Source of the DNA: Sphyrna mokarran
Lineage: Eukaryota
Direction: 5' to 3'
DNA: 64,000 nucleotides
Assembly: GCA_024679065.1 (NCBI GenBank)
Contig: JAGIQG010000011.1
Coordinates: 4,464,001-4,528,000, forward strand
The position numbers were made by a program, and so were the translations under genes. A model generated the notes under the pieces. The model was given only the letters and a program-made list of their open reading frames with translations. It was not told where the DNA came from and did not search any database. Shown in pieces: positions 2,621-63,752 of the stretch; the stretch's first letter is position 1, and each line of letters opens with the position of its first letter.

Positions 2621-4775
2621 TGTTTCTTCAGAAGGAACTCTTCAAAAAATGCAGAAAACATAACAAAACTGACTCCAGTTTATAAATCAAACAAAAGGTT
2701 TAATAAAGAAATATCACTACTCCTAACTTGAGCCCTGGGCCACTCCAAGCTTCCCTCAATTCTACATAGATTCTTATTTATAGTGAATCAGCTGACTATT
2801 ACATCACTCTGTAATTGGTTCCATGATTTACTGGGTCAGCTGATCCTTACATCTTGTTCCCATTGGTCACATTACATAGTTAATGTTAACTCCAATACAG
2901 AGTTGTCACCGGTTACATCCTAACAGATTCCTTTTATTTTAGTATCTTATTTTAATTTTTTTTCAAACTAATTTAAGACAACCATCCTCCAGTATTCTTA
3001 ATAACTTTCTGCACCTCTTTTTGTAAAAATAGTTGGATACCTGTAGATTTGCACTGATCCAGGCAAGTTTGGAAATTTCCTTGTTTTCCAGTATTTGCTT
3101 AATGATGGCCAAATCAATTCTGTCATTTTTCTGCTACACTTTTTGTTGAGTAAACATTGTCCCATCGATTGTTCACATACATTCAATTGGTACTTTCCTA
3201 CCTGATGTGCTCAAAAAAAAAATCTGCTCTGACAAATATATCCCCATATCCAATGCCTCCACTAACACTAGGGCTTCAGCCACCAATGTACTTTTGACTA
3301 CTCTTCTTATTTTCTTTGCTTCCCAGGCCAAGGGGCAACACTTTCTTTCCTTAGCTACCAGGGATATTATAAATCTAGCACCACATGAATGTCCATCTGG
3401 TAGATCGGCATGTGAAGCATCCTGAAACACAACCAATTTCATATCTTCTGATGCTCCTAGTTCTGGGAATTTAATTACTAATTCCTCTAATTTTAACATT
3501 TTAATATTTTATTAGCCTGCAAGACGTGACTGTGGCGTGCTTCAATATATTACTGAGCTCTAGGAGGTTAGAGTTCCCATCTGGTCTTTTCTGTGTGCAT
3601 ATCCAATTTAACTGTCCTATCATACTCCTCAACAACTGTTTCTTTTTTCATTGGCCTGTTTTTCTTTTCCCATTGATCTTTCTCTGATGATGGAAATAGG
3701 ATCAATACTGTTGAGGTATTCCTGTTGACTCATCGTTATAGCAGATGTGCCTTGCTGTAAACCAAGATATCGAAAAGCACCAACTGCTCGATTCCCTACT
3801 TTAAATTCTGTTTTCAGCTTCTCAATTATCCTTTTTGCAAATTCTTCTGTGCCACGCCATAGGAAATCATCCACATGCATCACAAAAATTCCAGCAAATT
3901 TTCCTTCCAGTAAAATGTTGCTCGGTTTGCTTTTAACTGGACACAGGTAGTCTTCAATAAGACAGATTGTACAGAGAAATACCAAATCCTTGATGCATCA
4001 AACCCATATATATGTATTTGTTCAATTTCCACAAATGCCCCTGTGTATCACTTGCTTCTTTGGGTGGCCTCAAAAAAACTTTTCTCTGAAATGTTTTGCC
4101 TTGAAGAAATGCTGCTTTGATATCAATTGATTTACGTATCCAATCAAGAGAAGTTAGAACAGTAAAAAAATTTTCAGTGTCACATTCCCTGCTGTGGATG
4201 ATTGAACCCTAATGTATCTCCCTTCCAAATGTTCCTCATATCCACGGGCTGCTAATCTGGCTTTAGCTTTATATGTTCCATCTTGCCAAAACATTCTCTG
4301 TATAAACCCCACTATGGGACAAAGCAGTCTGCCTTTCATCTCATACCATGGTGTACACCCCAAACTTCTTCCAACTGTCCAGTTCTCTTTGTTTGGCCTT
4401 TCTTACTTTTGTAAGCTCCATTTTGTTTGCAGCTATTAATTCTTTCTTATCATGGAGACTTCTACTCCTATTCTTTTCACTGATTTGATTCCTACTCTTC
4501 CCTGTTAAACTCCGACCTCTGCAGTCATGTGTATTTCTGTCAGGGCTGCTGCTCTCAGATTGCTGTTCTCTGTTGACACATCTTCAGTCACAGATTCGTG
4601 ACTTTTTTCTGGGTTCATAAATGTTTACTGTCTCATCCTCAGCACTTAGGTCTCATTTTTTTTTGTTTCCATCTGTCCATCCCATTTTCCCAATCTATGG
4701 CTTTGACTTCTTGACTTGCTCTTGGATGTTGAGCCAGTGTTTCTACTTTACTGGGGCCTTTCCTGCTTTCTATCA
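2621..4775 (-). mobile_element. Copia/Ty1 LTR retrotransposon remnant (RT-RNase H plus putative 3' LTR at about 2621-2925)
   Basis: Minus ORFs: KAKARLAARGYEE, VMHVDDFLW, FRYLGL, DASHADLPDG, AWEAKKIRRVVKSTLVAEAL. Purine-rich tract followed by TGTTA at 2925; candidate LTR ends ...AAACA at 2621. Confidence 0.85.
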
Positions 4776-4799: not shown

Positions 4800-6230
4800 G
4801 GGTGATTCTGAAATTAAGCAGACAATCTAATAGGATGGAGGTTGATACTGCAGTATCTGTAACTCCTGAGATTACATATCAATAAAAGCTGAAGCATCTT
4901 CTTTTACAGCTAGCTGATGTGATTTTAAGGGTATTTTTGGAAGAGATCATGCCATTAAAATGTTACATCTAGGTCAATATAGAATTGAGTGGACAAACAA
5001 CAGGTTTGCCTCATCCTGTGGTCTATGATAATTTTCCAGCTCTATTTGGAGATCATGGTTGGAGAAGATGAAGCTTAAAGGAGCGCTGTCAACAAACTGG
5101 CTGATGCCAAAACAGACCTATAACACCTTCAGGATAAATACAAAAGTGTATTTGAATGGACACTTGGCTCAATGAAGGGACTTCAAATGAAACTCAGGAT
5201 AAAGACTAACAGTCACCCAAAATGACTCAAAGAAAGAGAGTTCCATATGCAATTTGTTCAAGGTCAAGGAAGAATTAATATGACTTGTTAACAATAATAT
5301 ATTAGAACCAGTTGCAATGAATGGGTGGGCTACTCCCATCATACCTGTCATAAAACCAGATGGTTCAGTTTGTATTGGTGATGATTTTAAAACAACCATA
5401 AATCCAGTGTTGTGTGCTGATCAATACACGTTTCCTTTAATTGAAGATTTGTTTACTGGGTTATCAGGTGGGCATAAATTCAATAATATTGATCTTTCAC
5501 AAGCAGATTTACAGATGAATGTAGCACTGAATCTCAACCACTTGTTCATAATGGTCTTTTTTGTTATAAAAGATTGTCTTTTGGAATAACATCCATGCCA
5601 GACCTATTCCAAACATCAAGCGATTTTAATTAGTTTCTCTGGTTACTTGGATGATATTCTCCTAAAAACATCCTATGAGCAGGAGTACTTGAATAATTTA
5701 GAAGCAACATTGGAACATCTTCAAGCACATGGTCTGCATATCAAGAAAGAAATATGTGACTTTTTCCAGATGTTAGTCCAGTATTTGGATTTTATTGTTA
5801 GTAAAAACCTATGTAAAGCACCTTAAAAAAGGTGGATGCTATTTTACAAGCACAACATCTGATGAAGGTGATGCAACTGAAGTCCTTTCTAGGATTGGTA
5901 AATTATTATGACAAATTTGTTTCCTAATTATTGAAGTCATTGCATAATTTGCCATGTGTGAAACATGGGACTGGACAACAGAAAGTGAGAAAGTATACAA
6001 AGATGTCACAGATGCTTTGCAGAAATCTGAAGTATTGGTTCATTTTAATCTGAAGTGATCATTACTGCTTGTTTGTGATGCTTCACCTTATGGAACAGGG
6101 ACAGACATTTCAAATATTATGCCTTTGGGAGAAGAATGACTAATAGTCATCTCTTTGTGTACTTTGACTAGTGCTGAATCTAACTATGCTCAACTAGCAA
6201 ATTAAGGATTGAATATATTTTTGGGAGTAG
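4800..6230 (+). mobile_element. Gypsy/Ty3 pol remnant (protease-RT-RNase H)
   Basis: MEVDT protease-like motif (about 4835), WATPIIPVIKPDGSV, YLDDILL (about 5644), CDASPYG and NYAQL; many stops. Confidence 0.88.
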
Positions 6231-35975: not shown

Positions 35976-36874
35976 GTGATAGTAAGAAATACTGGGAGCA
36001 GCTGCACAGCAGAGGTTTCTCCAGCTGACATGATTTCAGTGAATCCTCACTATTTGACTGGCTTTTTCCAACATTGCAAAAGCACTGACCCACTTTCCCT
36101 TTGACAAAAGTTCCCTATTGTTAGTGTTGTTGCGAAGTCATGCTTTATATAAAAAATGGTTATTGAATTTACTGTTTGGAAACTGTTAATTGATTTTTAA
36201 AAATAAAGGATTGAAGCCAGACTCTCATGGCTTGGAATCACAGTCATAGACGGCTGCAGATGGGCCAAATGCATTCTGAAACACTTGAAATACAGAAAAG
36301 CTGTCCGCAAAACCAAACGGAAAGAAAATGAATAGGAGATGTTATGAAGGCAATAAAGGCCATGTGGGATCATCAATAGATCTCCTATGGGCTTCCTGGA
36401 GTATGAGCTGGGTTATTGAATAACTGGAGGAGGCTAGACCAATGTGAAGCAGTCAGCAATGATTTTAAGCCTGTAACTTTACCCGGAGATGTAGGTGAAG
36501 ATTACCTGACTGTGAACTGCAGGATCAGCCCTTTCCTTTGGCAATAAAAGGTGTTGGAGATGGAAAGTTGAGGTTTGGCTGAATTACTATATTTGGTAAT
36601 GCAGAAAATCTTTTTCCTCCATCTTTCTCTACAAACAACTTCCAAATGTAAAAATCTTTTCTGGTTAAAAAAACACCATTATGTCTCTTTTTGGGAAGCT
36701 CAAGCCTTATGACACCAATGTGGAAGACTGGGCCCAGTACATTGACACACACATTACTTCTTCCATGCTAAAATTTGAAGATGATGAAAAACAAAAACTG
36801 ATATTGTTAACAGCAGATGGGCCCTGATTTTCAGTATGATAAGAAATCTGACTAATTAACTTTGCAAGAATTTA

Positions 36875-38340
36875 GCAACACCAATTTATAATCCAACCGA
36901 TTTATTTGATAGTAAAAAAGCGAGCTTTCGACTCTTGGGTCTTCCTCAGGCAAATGCAGTGTTCTGGTCTGCAATAGCACACATCAGCACAGACAGTCAG
37001 AGATTGCTGATTAGAATGCGAATCCTTACATCTAACCTGCTATTCAAGTGTTAAAGTGGCTAACAATGTGTGTGAAGGGCATCCTGAGCATTGTTAGAGA
37101 ATTGTGTATTTTCTCCAGACAGCACAGTAAGTGAGGTTTTTTGCTAACCCAGGCAAGTTACGGGGGTTACAGATAGTGTGTCATGAAGCCAAGATCCCTG
37201 TTAAGACCATCCTCATGTGTGTGGAGCTTGGCTATCAGTCTCTGCTCAGCGACTCTGCGCTGTTGTGTATCACGAAAGCCCCTTGAAGAACATTTACCCG
37301 CAGGTCGGAGGCCGAATGCCCATGACTGCTGAAGTGTTCGCCCACAGGCAGGGAACTGTTTTGCCTGGTGATTGTTGAGCGATGCTCATTCATCCGCTGT
37401 CGTAGTGTCTGCATGGTCTCCCCAATATACCATGCTTCGGGACATCCTTTCTTGCAACGTATTAGGTAGACAACGTTGGCCGAGTTGCAAGTGTATGTAT
37501 CGTGTACCTGGTGAATGGTATCCTCACGTTTGATGATGTCGTCCATGTCTATGATCTGGCATGTCTTGCAGAGGTTGCTGTGGCAGGTTGTGTGGTATTG
37601 TGGTCACTGTTCTCCTGAAGGTTGGGTAGTTTGCTGCGAACAATGATCTGTTTGAGGTTGTGCGGTTGTCTGAAAGCAAGAAGTGGGGGGGTGGGGATGG
37701 CCCTAGCGAGATGTTCATCGTCATCAATGATATGTTGAAGATTCTGGAGAAGATGTCATAGCTTCTCCGCTCCGGAGAAGTACTGGACAACAAAGGGTAC
37801 TCTGTCCACCGTGTCCCGTGTTCGTCTTCTGAGGAGGTCAGTGTGGTTTATCGTTGTGGCACGTTGGAACTGTCGATCGATGAATCAAGCGCCATATCCT
37901 GTTCTCACGAGGGCATCCTTCAGCGTCTGGAGGTGTCTGTCACGATCCTCCTCATCTGAGCAAATTCTGTGTATACGGAGGGCTGTCCATAGGGAATGGC
38001 TTCTTTAACGTGTCTAGGGTGGAAGCTGGAGAAGTGGAGCATTGTGAGGTTGTCTGTCGGTTTGCGGTACAGTGAGGTGCTGAGGTGACCGTCCTTGATG
38101 GAGATGCGTGTGTCCAAGAATGCAACAGATTCTGGAGAATAGTCCATGGTGAGTCTGATGGTGGGATGGAACTTGTTGATATCATCGTACAGTTGTTTCA
38201 ATGATTGTCACCATGAGTCCAAAGGAAAAAGATGTCATCAATGTATCTAGTATATAACCTTGGTTGGAGATCTCGTGTGGTGAAGAAGTCTTGTTCGAAC
38301 CTGTGCATGAAGATGTTGGCATACTGAGGTGCGATTGAGC
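36875..38340 (-). mobile_element. Penelope-like element, 5'-truncated (RT C-terminus, GIY-YIG endonuclease, pseudo-LTR)
   Basis: Minus ORFs INKFHPTIRLT..VAFLDT..LYRKPTD and NVVYLIRCKKGCPEAWYIGETMQTLRQRMNEHR. Confidence 0.93.
36917..36955 (-). ncRNA. Minimal hammerhead ribozyme core in the Penelope pseudo-LTR
   Basis: Minus strand CUGAGGA-A-GAC-ccaaga-GUC-GAAA-GCUC; stem I weak. Confidence 0.6.
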
Positions 38341-42275: not shown

Positions 42276-42483
42276 CAATTTCCCAAGTAGAAAGATCATT
42301 AGCTTCAATTTCCTTCTGTCCAATGTAGTACCAAATGCAGGCCATCCAATGGGCTATCAGGGCAAACATGGACATGAGCAATGTGAGGACCACGGCACTG
42401 TACTGTGAATAACGATCCAATTTCTGAAGCAGCCGTAGCAGACGCAGCAAGCGCACGGTTTTCAGCAGATGAACCCCAAAATA
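42276..42483 (-). CDS. KCNH3: Internal coding exon (208 bp) of Elk-family K+ channel; S4 voltage sensor and S5
   Basis: Minus strand: ccacag|TAT TTT GGG...GAA ATT G|gtaagt. Translates [69 protein letters not shown](G). Elk subfamily is clear. [11 protein letters not shown] and IGQKEIE favour KCNH3 over KCNH4/KCNH8 (paralog call from memory, about 0.7). Confidence 0.93.
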
Positions 42484-44414
42484 CTGTGGAATTAATTAAT
42501 AATTAGTCTCACAAAAATGTCTTTTTACGTGAGAAAAATTTTATTTTTCTGCTGAGAATGAAAGGCTAGTTAATTGTTGATAACAATCACAGTTTACTCG
42601 CTAAAAACCTATAGTAATAAAATCACAAGCAGTTATATTCCAATGGCATTGCATTCAGGGAATGATCAGAGCAGAAGATTTCAACTGTTTTGTGAGAAGT
42701 GTCTCCTCACATCCTCATGGTTCTTTGCCCTCAAGACAGCAACAGCTCTCCAAAATATATAAGGCTATTACTGATATTTAAATAAGTAGCCCAAAAACAA
42801 AAATAATGACAAAGTCAACAAAAAGAGAACGACCGAAATACACACAACTGAGATCCCTTGTGAATTCAAGGTCTAAAGATCCCAGTTTGAAAACCAATGA
42901 TCTAAAAATACTGTTGGATACTTTAGAAAATCATCATCTATAAATAATAGATATTTGCTCAACTTACCGACCAAACTTTTACAAAAGGATTCAGACAAAA
43001 GTATTATTGTTTGAGAATAGAGAAGAATAGAGCAGTCTTGTTTTAGAATTATATTTAAGCACAAATCTGAACTCAAATGTATTTAAAATTGGTTGCCCGC
43101 CTCCAATTTTGCTGTGAAAAGTGCAATTTACAAACATACCTTAAATCCTTAATTGCACACTCAAATCACATTCAAAGAACATGAGAATGCAGTACTATTT
43201 TTTAATTGTAGGAAGCACTGGTAATATGTTGTTCCATTGCTTACCAATAATCTGATATGACTTTGTAACACCATGCTTTAAAAACAATTTTGTGTAAAAT
43301 ATGGTGGCACATTGAGTGAGATGTGGGGGGGAAGAAGTGACGGCTTTGATCGTGGTGTAGAGAGGGAAATATGCCAGCTTTGAATGCAGTGTGGGAGAGC
43401 CCCTGAGACTTCTGTAGCGGAGGGGGGGAGGTTACTTTCTTTCCTTTTGAACTTTAAAAACGGTGCCCCAAATCTCGATGCAACTGTGCTTTATCATATA
43501 AAAATTGCATTTTACTGTATAAAAGTTGCATTTTTACATAAAATACAACCACCCTGTTATTCTTTTGGCAAAATTGCATTTGGTCTGGTAGGAAAAATAG
43601 CCAGTTTCTCTGGAGAGAAACATGCCAGTTTTCAGTCAGACTTTGACACTTTAGTACTTTTTGATAAGACTCTGCCCATTATTTTCAGCAATCCTTTCAT
43701 TGGGTGTCTATGGCTTTGTGCTATTTATTAAAGTCTGAAACTGATATAGTAAGTCTGTAGGCAGGGTTTTACCACAGACCTTATGGCCCTGATGTCAGAG
43801 TGAAATGGCTGGACCTGAGTCTGCATTTAGCTCCAGGAATGCTGTCCAATTAAGGGAGCTCCGAATGCTGTGAGCTTAATCAGAGGGCCAGCAGCACTAG
43901 AACTTTGGTAATCTCTCTGAGAGAGGTAAGCACTTCTGTTGGCGGTGAACATAAAGTTGCTCTCAGAAAGATAATTTAAAATAGAATTCAAAGGTACCAG
44001 GCCTCATTGGAGCCAATAGAGTGGCTTTTGCTTTAGCCTCCATCTCCCGTTGGTGTCTAGACTGTTGCAAGGAGACCATGTTCATGAAGCTGGAATGAGT
44101 GCAGCTTGGTTGTTGGCAAAATGCTTGGGAAAACTGCTCTTATTAGGGACTTGAATTATTTATTTAGAATTTCATTTGAGCACAAATTTGGATTCAATGT
44201 ATTTAAAATTGGTTGCCCGCCTCCATTCACCACTAGAAAGCTTCCCTGACAGCAGGACTGCAGCAGGGAACTGTCCGGCCTGTCTCCCTGCTATTTTAAA
44301 GGCACCCCTTCACAGAATTGTGTAGGAGGAGGGCATATGGTCCTTTGTGTTTGCTCAGTAAGAGGTCTGGCAACACCAATTTTAAAGCTAACCAATTTAT
44401 TTATTTCATAGTAA

Positions 44415-44454
44415 ATCTGCTAGCTTTCGGCGTTTGTGCCTTCGTCAGGCAAAT
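44415..44454 (-). ncRNA. Minimal hammerhead ribozyme (sense to the KCNH pre-mRNA)
   Basis: AUUUGC-CUGACGA-A-GGC-acaaac-GCC-GAAA-GCUA-GCAGAU; 6-bp stem I (one GU) and 3-bp stem II. Confidence 0.7.
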
Positions 44455-44533
44455 GAGGTGTTCTGGTCTCCAAAAGCACACATATCAGCATAGACAGTGC
44501 GTTTATGTGTGCTTTTGGAGACCAGAACACCTC

Positions 44534-44573
44534 ATTCGCCTGACGAAGGCACAAACGCCGAAAGCTAGCAGAT
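44534..44573 (+). ncRNA. Minimal hammerhead ribozyme, mirror copy
   Basis: CTGACGA at 44540-44546, GGC/GCC stem II, GAAA at 44560-44563, then GCTA; one mismatch in stem I. Confidence 0.65.
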
Positions 44574-44689
44574 TTACTATCAAATAAATTGGTTGGATTT
44601 AAAATTGGTGTTGCCAGACCTCTTACTGAGTTTACCCCAGTCCAACGCCGGCATCTCTACATAATTACCTTTGTGTTTGCACCAGCTCT

Positions 44690-45235
44690 TCAAACGACAT
44701 TGTAACATAATGACATTTCTCTGTCATTCCCCATACCCCATACACACAATTAATATTCAAATAATCACCTAATGCCTTCTTGAAAGCCTTATTGAATGTG
44801 CCTCCATAATACTTCCGGCCAGAGTGCAAAAAAGCTTTTTCTTACATCACCTTTGCTTTATTTACAAATCACTTTAAATCTGTGTCCTCGTTTGATACTT
44901 TTGCAAGTGGGAACAGATTCTCCTATCTACTCTGTCCAGCCCCTTTAAGATTTTCAACATCTCTATCAAACCTCCTCTTAGCTTACTTCTCTGCAAAAAG
45001 ACCAGTTTCAACCTTGCCAATCTATCCTCGTAACTAAGAATTTCATATCTGGAACCATACCTGTAAACTTTTTCTGCACTCTCTCCAGTGCATTCACATC
45101 CTTTCTATAGCATGGCACCCAGAATTGTGTGCAATATTCCAGCTGAGTTCTAACTAATATCTTCTATAAGTTCAGCATTATCTCCTTGCTTTTGTACTCT
45201 ATGCATCTATTAATAAAGCCCACAATATTAGATGT
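44690..45235 (-). mobile_element. Degenerate CR1 3' fragment
   Basis: Reverse of the GFINRCIEYKSKEIMLNL and LRGGLIE region. Confidence 0.8.
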
Positions 45236-45249
45236 TATCCCACCCACAC

Positions 45250-45555
45250 CACGACATGGTAGCACAGTAGTTAGCACTGCTGTCTCATAGCGCCAGGAAC
45301 CTAGGTTAGATTCCTGGTTTGGGTTACTGTTTGTGTGGAGTTTGCACATTCTCCCCACATCCTCTGGGTGCTCCAGTTTCCTCCCACAGTCCAAAAATGT
45401 GCAGGTTAAATTTATTGGCCATGTTAAATTGCTCCTTGGTGTTACAGGGATGTCAGGGGGATTAGTAGGGTAAATATATGGAGTTACAGGGCTTGGGTGG
45501 GATTGTTGTCAGTGCAGACTCAATGGCCTCCTTCTGCACTGTGCATATCTTATTC
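45250..45555 (+). mobile_element. HE1-like V-SINE
   Basis: tRNA head, V core and CR1-type tail. Confidence 0.85.
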
Positions 45556-46199
45556 TATCCCCATACCACCTTTCCTTGGTACCAGTAAAATCCTGCCTTA
45601 TAAATCCAGGTAAGAAAATTGATCGGTATCATCTTGATTCGTGTGGACCATTAATTCTGTGTAATATTTGAACAGTTCAGTAGAAGAGATTGAGTTGGAT
45701 TTATCCTCTTACACAAATTATGTCATAATTATATCTGAAACGTAATTATCCTGATCTAAAGTCCATTGGCCAATCAATTAATGATAGTCACTGAAATCTT
45801 GCTGGCATTTAGGCCAGCAAGATCTTAAAGCCCCACCACTAGTGAATGGTGCATCACTTTCCACCAACATGAAACACGCCACAGAGGAGGGGAAAAAAAT
45901 ACTACCATCATATTGGCCGAGGGGGAAGTTGATTTTAGAAGATAAAAGCAGCAGAATGAAGCAGAATTATGTTATAACAACACCCCAGACAAATTCTCTA
46001 GGGTGAAGTATCACATTTGTCCCCTAAGGAAACCGAGAGAGAATTGGGACCAAGCTAGGTTGCCTTTTAATTGAAATTAAAATATATTCAAATACAGGGC
46101 TCTAAAGTTATGAATTTTTCCCCCAAAAATTGAAGTTTCATATTGGTGAGAAAACCAAAGTGATCTGCAATGATCTCTCTACAGCAGTCCCACACAGTG

Positions 46200-47800
46200 C
46201 ACTGAACAAACCCCCATGTGAAACCCTCAGTATGGAGCCCCAGGCGTGTGATTCTCTCAAACTGGCCCGAGAGTCAGTTAACAAGGGTCTTGTTAACAAG
46301 GGGGAGCTGCATTGAAGTGCTCTCTCAGCATTAACAGCCAGTCACATCAGGAGGACGGAAGTGCATAGACCAGCTCCACATTTCATGGAGGGAGATCTAA
46401 ATGGCTTCTGCATGCCGTGGAGAAAAGGCAAGATATTCTGTCCCTCAAGAGGGTAGACAACCCAGCAGCAGGGAGTGGATGCAATGGCTGTGGTGTCAGG
46501 TCATGGACTGACATGGAGGACTGGCACCCAATGCCAGGACAAAATGAACAATGTTATTCTGGGTGAGTGTCCACGAGTGAAGCAAGTCATGTGAAGTCAA
46601 CGTGCACCACAGAAGTGAGGATGCACAAAACCTTCATATAACCTGTCTCAAGTAAGGCCTTGGTTGGCCTTGCCACAGGCGGCCAAATCTGTCAGCCACC
46701 ACAGCAGCAACGAGGATTACTGCCAACTTTGGCTCAATCCTGGCATTCATGATTCCTCTAGGGGATGGGAAGGACAGCGGGAAAGATAGCATTATTCATC
46801 TCAGGCACCTCAAACTCTCCCAGCACCCCGTGTCCTCATGATGCTGGGCCATGACAACCCTTACACCATGCGCCTCCTCCATTGGCTGCCAATCTTTACC
46901 ACATCATTGCCTCAGAGGCTGTGGGCCCTGCCCATGCCCCTTCATAGTTGCCAATAGTTTCCAATACAACTGTACGTGTCCCTTCACATGATGCGGAATG
47001 ATGCCTTCTGCACCCTCAATAAAGTTGCATGGTCACTGGTCAGCAATGGTCAACCTTTTCAGATATGGACTCCAGTACCACAAGTCATTGACAGCGTGTA
47101 GCATATTTAACTCAGCACTCTGGTGATTACATAGGGTATAAGATCCTCATTGAGATACCCTTACAACATAACCTGTGTGCAAATGCCTGGACATGTGATG
47201 TAAACTAGCTTCCAAGCATGGCGTTCAGTTCAGACAGATGATAAAAAAGCATCCTCCTGACTTTCATGCAATGGGTGCCCATTGTAGGGAGCACTCCACA
47301 GTTCATGCAGGAGCTGTGTTAATATCTGCTAAACTCCCTTGGTTGGAGGGACAGCTGCCAGACTTTGTGTTTGTAACTATTAGTGAGATCTGGGATTGCA
47401 TGTCTGCAATAAACCACAGAGCCTGTCCAGCAGATGGATAGCAGAGTAACCAGTGTAACATTAGTGATATTTGAACTCAACTTCTTATTAAACCTCTCGG
47501 GTGTCTTTCAGCAGGCAGGGAGAATGCTCACCACACAAGCCCCAACCAGCAGCGACCCTTGACCTGAGGATCCCTAACCTAGCTTGAGCTCCCCTCCTCA
47601 CCACGCCCTTACACCCTTCAAGACCCCCACTCCAACCCACTGTGGCAGCACCTGACCTGTCCTTTTACACCCTGGAGGTTGGCATACTCACTTCCTCAGA
47701 CACTCTTGCAACTGTGAAGTCTGAACCACACTTCAAGAGACCAGCAGTGATTCATGTCAGAGAGCTGGGAACATTCTGGAAGGGCGGATAGTCTGAACCG
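46200..47800. mobile_element. PIF/Harbinger remnant (Myb/SANT-like on +, transposase traces on -)
   Basis: + strand PAPHFMEGDL..LHAVEKRQDIL...WRTGTQCQDKMNNV followed by gtgagt (about 46370-46568). - strand TRTVVLETIG at about 46950-46985. Confidence 0.6.
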
Positions 47801-49320
47801 AACTCGCAATTGAAATTGAATCAGTCAATTTAATGGGATATATGCTTATCAGCCTCGTATCTAGAATGGTGCCAGTAGAAAGGGGCTGGGAAGATTACAA
47901 ACTGTTTGGTGTGGGACACAAACCAATTTTTAGGCTTGCACGCTGTTTTCTGGGATTAGCACAATCTGTACTGATCACAGCAAGGCTTGAAAATCACCTC
48001 TATCAGGTTGCATTTTACTCTTACTTACATTTTTAAAAATGTGTTATGTTCTGTCTATGTTTGACTGACCCTCCTGTACAGTCTTAATTGATTCACTGAA
48101 AACATGTAAATGCTGGTTTTTATTCCTGATAATTTATTTCTACAATCACAACTCTCTGTTCTGGCATCCAAGTGTAGCTTTGCTAGTACTGGACAGACAT
48201 TGTGTAAAGTCTCTATGCTCCCAGTCAGGCTCAATCATTTCAGCCTCAACTTACACTATCTCACACCCTGTCCTCTCATTAAAAACCCCAAACGCCTCTG
48301 AAACCTTTGCTTTATACTGCCAGGTTTGAGATTTCGAAAGGGAAGAGGGCAGTAGCAAATTGGCTTTCACCAAACCCAACTTCAATATCCAAACACTCCA
48401 CACACGTCACCTCCTTGGCCTTTGGCTGGTGTATCCTCCTTCAGCTAAGTTCTATGGGGCAATAGTATTGTGGATTATTTTCTGATAACGTTTAGCATTG
48501 TACTGCAGTGGTTTCCAATTGCCTGTTGCAGTGGTTTGTCATTGCCTTTTGCAATGTGGCTGACAAGAAAACTTTCCTTCTCTTACTGCCTGCTATCAGG
48601 GGTACTGAAAGGATTTACAGGCTGATTGTCAGCTTGTTTGACCACAATAGGAATACTCCTTCTGTGGCCGTCAATCCTGGAATTGGACTAGAACCTAAAG
48701 CTTCTAGCCCAGAGGTAGAGATGCTGCCCACAGCATCGTAATATCTCCTAGCTGCTATTGCAGTTAGTTTTAAAAAAGAACTGGGTCGTTATACATCTTA
48801 GTGGATAATTCAATTTCTTGGTAAGATATTGGGTCATGTAGAAGAGAACATAATTAATCTCATGGACTGAGTTGGATGTGTATCGTATACATGGTGTCTG
48901 TCTCTTTAAGACGGTATAGCAGAAAAGGAGCACTTGATTTGGGGCACCCATGGGATCTGAAAATGAGTGATCACCCCAGGGGATGACGTCTTTTCTCAGG
49001 TAGGATCATCTACCAGCCATGTAGTTAACATCAAAGACTGGAGCTGCAACTTCTGCCCACCATTTCTATACATTCTTATGTAATTAGAGTACTGTCTTCT
49101 CATATGGGAAGTTACTCACGTAAGTGGCACTATCAACATGTGGAAGGGAAAGGAAATGAAAAAAATGAATTACTTAAAAATGTATGAACTAAAACATTCC
49201 ACTTTTTTATGTGCCAGAATTAGAAATAAAATTATGTTCAAGCTAATCGCAGAGTCTGTCTAATTCTGGAATCCAAAAATTGGTCTTGCAACCTAGAACA
49301 AACAGAAATAAGGTATAATA

Positions 49321-49481
49321 GAAACAGAAAATGTTGTAAAATCTCAACAGGTCTGACAGCATTTGTGGAGAGAGAATAGAGCCAATGTTTTGATGATGAA
49401 ATATTGGCTCTATTCTTTCTCCACAGGTGCTCCACAAATTCTCTGTTGGACCTACTGAATTTTTCCAGCATTTTCTGTTTC
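49321..49481. repeat. Degenerate inverted repeat, probably Penelope pseudo-LTR-derived
   Basis: gaaacagaaaatg...gagccaatgttt / aaatattggctc...cattttctgtttc; related single arms at about 12510-12590 and 57965-58200. Confidence 0.7.
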
Positions 49482-49615
49482 AGATTACAGAATCTATAGT
49501 ATTTTGCTTTTATCTTAAAAACAAGGTAAAACTCAGCCAATTTTCTGACTTAATGTACTTATATTGTGATCTGTGTCTTTCTTCATTTCAATATTTCTTA
49601 AACAGACAGACTCAC

Positions 49616-49773
49616 CACATTGATATTGAATGCATAGAGGAGGTCAAAGGGAAGTGCAGCTATAAGATCCACGAAGAACCAGGTAGTTGCATAGTGCACA
49701 CAAATTGAGCGAGGATCATAGACAACCTGTCCAGACTTACTGACATATGTTGTCCGAAAATTCAGCATGATAT
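49616..49773 (-). CDS. KCNH3: Internal coding exon (158 bp) of Elk-family voltage-gated K+ channel; S2-S3 region
   Basis: Minus strand: tttctag|AT ATC ATG...AAT GTG|gtgagt. Translates (D)[52 protein letters not shown], a typical EAG-family S2-S3 segment. Canonical AG/GT, phase 1 to phase 0, joins in frame to the next exon. Not in the ORF track. Confidence 0.93.
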
Positions 49774-61700: not shown

Positions 61701-62413
61701 TGGGCTGGTTTGGGGTGGGTTGGGCAAAGATGAGGAATGCATGGGTACTATTCTTGGGTTCACAAACAACAGCATAGATATAAATGTGCTGTCCTTTAAA
61801 ATTTTTTCAAAATGCTACAAATTTCTGTGGAGTCAAGAACTTCCAAAATGAATAAAATAATTGCTGCAGGTTTCTGCATTTTTTTTTGCCACAGGGCCTG
61901 ATTTTACCAAAAATTCATGCTCGTTTTCGGGCACAAAATCGCAGTAAATTTGGGCGCGGGCTGTAACGTGGTCTGCACCCAAAATCAAGCAGATTGCACC
62001 TTTACCAACACCCGCACCCCAATCGGGTGGCCCAATGATTTAAATGTATTAGCATGCATTTAAATCGTCTTAATGAACCGCGCAGCCAACTCTACCGCCA
62101 AATCCCACTTTACCATCTTCAGATCCATTCCGGATCCGCGCTGTTACCAACCTGCAGAATAAAAATCCAAAGCAGATTCCTATTCTGCAGGGGAACCTCC
62201 GAAGCTCATCCTCCTTGAATACCCTTCGCAGACCCACTGTTAACTATCCTAGCAGACCTACTCCCCACGATCCGAACCCCTTGGGAGGCAGACCTCACAC
62301 AGCAGACCACCCCCACCCCCCACTCCCCTGAAGGCAAACCCCTCTCGGCAGAGCACACCTCCAACCTACTTGCATTGCTGCTCTCCCTATACCATCCTTC
62401 TGACCTGCACTCG

Positions 62414-62535
62414 TTGATATGGAGATGTCGGCGTTGGACTGGGGTAAACACAGTAAGAAGTCTCACAACACCAGGTTAAAATCCTGTTGGAAAGTCCTAT
62501 TGGACTTTAACCTGGTGCAGTGAGACTTCTTACTG
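62414..62535 (-). mobile_element. Minimal Penelope fold-back remnant with a TSD
   Basis: Tail ggagatgtcggcgttggactggggtaaac; inverted arms 62451-62484 and 62502-62535; ctgcactcg at 62405-62413 and 62533-62541. Confidence 0.85.
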
Positions 62536-63752
62536 CACTCGGAAAGCCTGCAGCACCATCCTGGCCTTCCGCTGGCGTCTGCCAGGAGGAGGGTTGGGGG
62601 GGGGGGGGGGGGGGCAGACTGAAATAGATTTCTGGTTGTGGGGGGAGGAGGATGGTAATAGAATGGACTTGGGAAAACTCCACTACTTCCCCCCCCAACC
62701 CTGAGAGATGCTTGAGGGCAAGAGGGAGGGAGAGAATGCAGCCAAAGGCAGCGAGAGCCATACTGTGTACAACACTTCAAGGTACCTGGATTGGTACTTT
62801 CATTAATTTGCTATCCAGATTTCTTAACATTTTTTCAAAGCTTTTTTTTTTTACACATTTAACTGTGATGTTAATTGATTTTAAAAAGTGCAGAGTGGGC
62901 CAATAGCATGGAAGTTCCTGACGTTGGCACAGGGGTCATAGTAGTTGGTGAAAGAACACAGCCAGGCATAGGGCACATGAGAGGACACAGGGATGGTGGA
63001 AGGGCACAACTTGGGGGCATGAGGGAACATTGAGGTTGGATGAGGTTGTAAATTCAAATAGGGGGCATGAATGGGACTTTTCAAACCTACTTTTTAAAAG
63101 ATCCCCTTCTGGTTCATGATTTCTCCAGAAGGCCATGCACCATGGTTCTTTAAAAAGTAAATGAACTCCATAAAAATTGTGCAGGAGTTAGAGGTAGCTA
63201 TAACCACAATGGAATAACAAGGTCAGGAGTGCTGGCTGTGGATTTCTGACAAAGAGCATCACACATTCCTTAAAAATTCTCTTGACAAGCTCACAAACAA
63301 GGGGGTCAAAGGGATACCACGTTATTCATTGGAAGGGGATGGATGAAGACTCTAGATGTGATAGGTACAGGTCCAAGTGGGGCACGCACACTTTGCAGGC
63401 GATGGTCTCGATGGGTGGGTAATTGAAAAGATTTCTTCTCAAGGCTGCTAGCCTTTTCCCTCAGCATTGTTGACATCCTGCATTGTCTAGTGAAGTTAGC
63501 TGGACTGGAGAGAATGATATGAGTGAGATGAACTGGTATTTAAATATGGTGCAGACGCCTTCAAAAAGGTCAGCTGGTTGCATGGGGATGAATGAACTGC
63601 AGGCCTGTCAGGTTACTCAGAGGGAGTACTTGTTAATTGTGTGTAATTTATGAGGTTCCAAGTGCTGAATCTGGCACAGGATCCGCTATTCTGGTTGGTG
63701 CTGCTGGAGCCGCCCATTGCTAGACATGGGATTCTCAATTGTCATCAGTGTT

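Follow-up and report, generated by a model that had tools for sequence, protein, structure and literature searches.

A head-to-head Penelope terminal repeat with opposite-strand hammerhead motifs in a KCNH intron of Sphyrna mokarran, a probable product of priming from two DNA nicks on one RNA

The window, the whole 64,000-nucleotide stretch of Sphyrna mokarran DNA analysed here, carries a 313-bp fold-back insertion inside an intron of a potassium-channel gene of the KCNH (EAG) family. We conclude that this insertion is the terminal repeat of a Penelope-like element (PLE), probably produced when both target strands were nicked 13 bp apart and one RNA was copied twice from starts ~33 nt apart, and that it is likely inactive, with its ribozyme predicted to be buried in a hairpin. 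The window copy is a single insertion of a known layout. The locus as such is of little weight, as it is one among an estimated few thousand such stubs (48/100 sampled copies have the layout and the tail has 5,955 exact copies). The family, in turn, bears on the open question of how PLEs integrate and how their head-to-head palindromes originate.

The original prediction had described a 313-bp insert with a 13-bp target-site duplication (TSD), near-perfect inverted arms and a 37-nt tail, and all of these are present (Table 1). The two TSD copies are identical, and a chance duplication is excluded by a swapped-flank control (0/234). The arms (131/127 bp) are inverted head to head at 44354-44484 and 44504-44630 with a 19-nt centre between them, and they differ by 4 substitutions and a 4-nt indel (93.9% identity by BLAST). 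With the inverted arm taken as in Table 1, it extends ~14 nt further 5′ than the forward arm. The 5′ ends of the two arms lie at about -50 and -36 from C3, which places the window copy in the short class described below. The tail is unpaired and lies on the right side only. The insert had also been called young. This holds in a relative sense, as CpG observed/expected is 0.72 in the insert versus 0.18-0.25 around it, but the arms are already ~4-6% apart. The nearest copies of the insert show 3-6 mismatches in ~160 nt.

Table 1. Features of the insertion and its host intron (positions in the window)
Feature	Position	Strand	Remarks
Left target-site duplication, 13 bp	44342..44354	+	Final base shared with the inverted arm as 1-nt microhomology
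Inverted tail-less arm of Penelope terminal repeat	44355..44498	-	Start lies ~32 nt in from the tail end
Minimal type I hammerhead, sense to host pre-mRNA	44415..44454	-	C3 at 44448, predicted cut after 44421
Centre junction	44499..44503	.	~5 bases fitting neither arm well; unique in genome
Forward arm: 5′-truncated terminal repeat (3′ UTR = pLTR) of Neptune-type element	44504..44630	+	
Minimal type I hammerhead, element sense	44534..44573	+	C3 at 44540, predicted cut after 44567
One-sided PLE tail, 37 nt	44631..44667	+	In tandem copies, followed by the start codon of the ORF
Right target-site duplication, 13 bp	44668..44680	+	
Host intron of KCNH (EAG-family) potassium-channel gene	42484..49615	-	GT-AG, 7.1 kb

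A hammerhead had been claimed for each strand, and the core boxes are indeed found in both arms. Each arm also has an unpaired base following A9, the G10.1-C11.1 pair, a stem II of 3 bp and a palindromic AGCU stem III that lacks a loop. The motif would be present in each arm only because it sits ~95 nt from the tail end. Stem I of the minus-strand copy, described as a full 6 bp, does pair over 6 bp (including one G-U), and the plus-strand copy has a C-A mismatch there. However, the minus-arm pairing is probably the result of CpG decay after insertion, since 14/16 other subfamily copies have C at this position. Loose core matches are rare in the 64-kb window, numbering only 7, two of which are these arms. 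The covariance-model search proposed with the original prediction gave no support, as the hammerhead families of Rfam returned no match at E up to 1 for 1.5 kb of sequence or at E up to 10 for a single arm. The insert gave only generic miRNA-hairpin and Flavi_CRE matches below the gathering score in the 1.5-kb Rfam search; the miRNA matches arise because the insert is a palindrome, and a single arm gave no Rfam match of any kind.

Across the family, the hammerhead core is retained in 36/57 long arms, with the bulged A in 36/36, AGCT in 35/36 and a G-C first pair of stem II in 32/36. Helix II occurs as 23 different sequences and reaches at least 3 bp in 35/36 cores versus 1.7 in shuffles, counts that come from related copies and so do not represent independent events. 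It is 3-5 bp long in the family, and its second pair varies among G-U, A-U and G-C. From this comparison of copies, the hammerhead motif looks to be under selection in the family.

The predicted location in a potassium-channel intron was borne out by the minus-strand exon ending at 42483, which matches KCNH2/1/5 (E 4e-19). The upstream exon ends at 49616, bounding the GT-AG intron. We take the text of this upstream exon to be channel S2-S3-like, and the host gene presumably resembles the Elk (Kv12) subfamily. Motif look-up revealed no further channel exons in the window downstream of 42270. The insert lies ~1.9 kb from the 3′ splice site of the intron. A contig from sequencing run X1 spans both flanks and shows no differences up into the arms. 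No empty-site joint was found among the matches listed for the contigs of runs X1-X4; these runs gave contigs only, mostly of other family copies, and X2-X4 were without left-flank coverage.

Other repeats were seen in the window. The Neptune-type family of the insert is also represented at 36858-38329 (minus strand), by a 1.4-kb copy that lacks the tail and has a disrupted ORF. The hammerhead core of this copy, at 36949, is on the strand of the host gene and outside any hairpin, and its stem I is poor. At 62405-62541 (minus strand) there is a second, smaller fold-back from a sister Penelope family; this 128-bp insert has a 9-bp TSD and a tail on one side, and is without a hammerhead. Decayed frames at 3150-4600 (minus) and 5284-5826 (plus) are presumably Copia-like and Gypsy-like RT fragments, and many fragments elsewhere in the window are, we assume, CR1/L2-like.

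The Penelope origin of the insert, also part of the original prediction, follows from its genomic copies, as the same repeat adjoins a GIY-YIG C-terminus and the full-length element L090 carries RVT_1. A search of the genome with the insert gave 84 matches from the best 40 of 1,898 candidates; 11 of 30 loci from this search were dropped as the same places on the other strand. Single-arm copies continue upstream into the GIY-YIG C-terminus, and PF01541 (GIY-YIG) matches the C-terminal 118 aa of L039 at E 0.001, with 19.8 bits against a Pfam cut-off of 22.6. A protein search yielded 19,930 candidates, and several frames of 800-945 aa were found among the best 150 scored. L090 is a 3,020-bp element with a single 890-aa frame from the element start, in which RVT_1 was detected (E 8e-10); GIY-YIG was not reported in a search of the whole L090 protein. 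A C-x4-C-x2-C linker stands just before the EN domain in L090-L092, and the Neptune clade is defined by a CX2-5CxxC zinc-finger-like linker between RT and EN in the excerpted text of PMC8557442. By the definitions given there, the parent would be a Neptune-type EN+ Penelope element of ~3.0 kb with RT and GIY-YIG, bearing in mind that Nematis also has the linker motif.

L090 represents a sister subfamily, with 85% identity to the window copy in the terminal repeat, while copies of the same subfamily have 95-98%. L090, L091 and L092 are near-intact Neptune-type frames of 880-945 aa that are 98% alike, which would suggest recent activity of the sister subfamily. A pseudo-LTR tandem was also found, in which a truncated 816-bp copy (L074) reads straight into a full 3,017-bp copy (L075), so that the end of the L074 tail adjoins the start codon of the L075 ORF. 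A 28-mer from the tail has 5,955 exact copies in the genome (control 0), and the 27-nt hammerhead core of the window plus strand has 581.

We sampled 100 tail copies, taking the first ones listed by position to avoid choosing by likeness. This sample is not random, as it covers the first 47 Mb of one contig, requires an exact tail and includes two neighbour pairs (L074/L075 and L132/L133). An inverted piece abuts 57/100 tail copies and has the canonical form in 48, ending 24-59 nt short of the tail end. The remaining 9/57 are non-canonical (7 internal, 2 with the tail). L103, L125, L130, L131 and L146 show a second inversion type, in which the inverted piece is internal to the element; we take these to resemble LINE-1 twin-priming inversions. 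A TSD of 8-14 bp flanks 40/48 canonical fold-backs (swapped-flank control 0/234), and the 48 have 48 different breakpoint pairs. Of the two origins offered by the original prediction, a minimal product of PLE insertion is supported.

A second sample comprised 60 arms of the window subfamily with an exact ribozyme core (7 of the first 67 core places were skipped, 6 as partners of a pair and 1 as already in the set). These arms fall into two 3′ end classes, 26/60 with the tail and 34/60 tail-less, and 32 of the 34 tail-less arms end 26-43 nt short of the tail end, with a peak at 33. Tail-less arms also occur alone, and 8/13 of these have their own TSD (11-17 bp in six of them). Therefore, the inner end is a start of synthesis rather than a stop. 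Furthermore, the inverted arm is longer than its partner in 20/48 fold-backs, shorter in 16/48 and level in 12/48, and a fold-back of tail-primed cDNA cannot give the 20 in which it is longer.

Both arms were copied from one template subfamily. In a single-template test, an arm's own partner was the best match or tied in 20/34 cases, and at most one other copy was better in 29/34; for the window copy, the partner matched at 112/116 versus a median of 0.82. Fifteen of 48 arms were too short for this identity test and were left out. The 5′ breakpoints of the two arms correlate (rho 0.74), with 14/48 within 10 nt versus 4.2 expected from permutations, and in subfamily fold-backs 14/33 lie within 20 nt versus 7.1 expected, a correlation that subfamily-specific stall sites could inflate.

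The 5′ ends of the 60 subfamily arms are unevenly spread: 42/60 lie no more than 80 nt upstream of C3, 3 fall in the following 140 nt, and 15 are further away; the -80 boundary was picked after seeing the data. In these arms (L167-L226), 23/60 of the 5′ ends fall within 20 nt in front of the core, and there is a sharp drop beyond ~80 nt. The pile-up is a candidate stall site and the drop at -80 a candidate RNA start. A spliced 5′ exon preceding the ends at -15 was considered and rejected, as the 25 arms inspected have no common upstream sequence. Ribozyme-defined template ends were also rejected for the window family. Breakpoints could be placed in 146/148 cases and are not enriched at the ribozyme cut: of 65 in its vicinity, 2 come within 2 nt of it, where 3.6 would be expected. 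Cleaved RNA thus apparently does not serve as template in this family.

We propose the following mechanism, which is read from end products only. The element's enzyme would nick both DNA strands 12-14 bp apart (13 bp at the window locus). One nick would prime reverse transcription at the tail end, and the other would prime at the inner edge of the tail, ~33 nt inside, on the same RNA. Both cDNAs would stop early, probably on a short 5′ leader of the RNA, with the short class running along this leader towards the RNA start, and repair would then join the cDNA ends head to head. We regard as evenly balanced the broader reading that the stubs form an in vivo map of Penelope integration, with both nicks of a 12-14 bp stagger primed on one RNA, two starts ~33 nt apart, and a short class running off a transcription start that would lie ~200 nt from the tail end and ~80 nt 5′ of the hammerhead. 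If this is true, the head-to-head palindromes of PLEs are explained without an antisense template, and the promoter is placed.

The same dead Penelope stub could also have gained its inverted arm by snap-back, in which the cDNA folds on itself and is copied back. Near-symmetric centres are indeed in excess (9/48 within 5 nt versus 2.4; 14 within 10 nt versus 4.2), near-perfect palindromic centres have ends within 3 nt in 12/48, and zero-loop palindromic junctions occur (for example L053, L102, L140 and L159), as do micro-inversions at cDNA ends and small local inversions at junctions. In the excerpted part of PMC3846280, rotifer PLEs are proposed to prime themselves on an antisense template. 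However, neither the solitary tail-less arms with their own TSD (8/13) nor the longer inverted arms (20/48) agree with snap-back, and we consider it an improbable origin for the window copy; snap-back of the inner-primed strand possibly accounts for part of the copies. Less probable still is a non-autonomous mini-element, in which the whole 313-bp hairpin would be transcribed and inserted again as one piece. The centre junction of the window copy occurs once in the 2.77-Gb genome, even with up to 2 mismatches allowed, which largely refutes this explanation, and fold-back lengths form a continuum of 59-2,898 bp with only 6/48 at 250-400 bp. The original prediction had suggested a mobile ribozyme-bearing mini-element and a comparison of inversion points among copies; all centres differ (19/19 look-alikes, 48/48 position-sampled and 33/33 subfamily fold-backs) and the window junction is unique, so the copies are not a discrete family and the mini-element idea falls. 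It should be noted that at least 18 other copies have a similar size and layout, and that one other centre junction recurs exactly at 6 loci (L161-L166) that belong to different subfamilies. These loci nevertheless differ in stem II variant and have the tail on one side or the other, and in 5/6 the inverted arm is about as close to its own partner as to any other inverted arm, or closer. This fits a recurrent join at a favoured 3-nt microhomology rather than one lineage, and suggests that ~50-65 nt upstream of the hammerhead core there is a hot spot for such joins. A MITE-like or SINE-like discrete element was likewise rejected, since ends, length and internal junction are not common to the copies.

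A further explanation gives the insertion a role in the KCNH pre-mRNA, where it would be a ribozyme switch open to cleavage or a long double-stranded RNA attracting editing or small-RNA processing. The minus arm is sense to the pre-mRNA with its 6-bp stem I, a ~130-bp hairpin is predicted in either direction, and another hammerhead of the family, at 36949, shares this strand. However, by folding energies that ignore proteins, the hammerhead fold would cost a predicted 71 kcal/mol relative to the hairpin, for both strands as well as in the nascent pre-mRNA, while single arms alone have a predicted penalty of 8-14 kcal/mol. The penalty holds even in the nascent RNA because the antisense arm is transcribed before the ribozyme-sense arm. 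The ribozyme state is thus predicted to be permanently off rather than switchable, which counts against the self-silencing switch of the original prediction. In addition, the loop-less stem III needs a same-strand dimer partner, and the two window ribozymes cannot dimerise with each other because they are on opposite strands. Minimal hammerheads of this kind are inactive as monomers and weak as dimers in the excerpts of PMC4209133 and PMC6765202, and need the element's protein in those of PMC11167929. Cores are found on both strands in 9/100 sampled copies, so nothing singles out the window copy, and the nearest splice site is 1.9 kb away. We therefore give an effect on the pre-mRNA very little credence as an account of the insertion. 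In these folding models a switch is unlikely, and a passive double-stranded RNA substrate in the KCNH pre-mRNA is possible. With the insertion read as a twice-primed Penelope stub, the ~130-bp hairpin would keep the ribozyme unfolded in the pre-mRNA and the insertion would be neutral for the host. The case is a warning that opposite-strand hammerhead pairs in introns are scars of insertion and not regulatory switches.

The comparisons that follow draw on excerpts of the cited papers. The insertion unit of EN+ PLEs consists of an inverted 5′-truncated copy and a one-sided tail of 30-40 bp (PMC8557442; Adineta Pen2a/Pen2, PMC3846280). The window unit shares with it the inverted copy that is shorter by the tail, the one-sided tail, the TSD, the palindromic junction and the 5′ truncation, but it is cut down to the terminal repeat, without an ORF. 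TSDs are mostly 12-14 bp in the window family, compared to 8-10 bp in rotifer PLEs (PMC3846280), and in the window family the layout has been counted (48/100 copies). Dual minimal hammerheads ~100-700 bp apart on opposite strands, and minimal hammerheads in fish Neptune PLEs, were described in PMC4209133, so the layout, including the opposite-strand pairs, is already published. The window motifs resemble those of other metazoan PLEs in their core boxes, the unpaired base after A9, G10.1-C11.1 and the loop-less palindromic 15.2-16.2, and differ from the schistosome motifs in helix II, which is 3 bp in the window copy (3-5 bp in the family) compared to 7-8 bp (PMC4209133). Non-LTR retrozymes are similarly small (~300 bp), non-coding and PLE-derived, with a type I hammerhead (10.64898/2026.07.22.740005). 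However, retrozymes are head-to-tail tandem units with same-strand ribozymes, whereas the window insert is one head-to-head pair with ribozymes on opposite strands and a unique junction. Identity with a retrozyme was rejected on these grounds.

The closest experimental counterpart in these excerpts is PAc, the protein of an anole (Anolis) Poseidon element, which in vitro cuts both strands and extends them from two RT starts, one at each boundary of the tail (PMC11167929). The window family is alike in that two starts bound the tail. The excerpts of PMC11167929 do not link the two starts to head-to-head insertions, and our search of a limited collection of papers found none that explains the head-to-head layout of PLE insertions by priming of both strands from two starts. 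The two systems also agree on the ribozyme, as there was no sign of RNA ends at the ribozyme cut for PAc in the excerpted text and there is no breakpoint excess at the cut in the window family. They differ in that PAc belongs to a different clade, with the hammerhead and RT starts inside the start of the ORF (starts 111-118 nt in), whereas in the window family the hammerhead and the starts are upstream of the ORF and the tail ends at the start codon. With the family counts, the in vitro finding of two starts becomes a set of testable predictions in a second clade.
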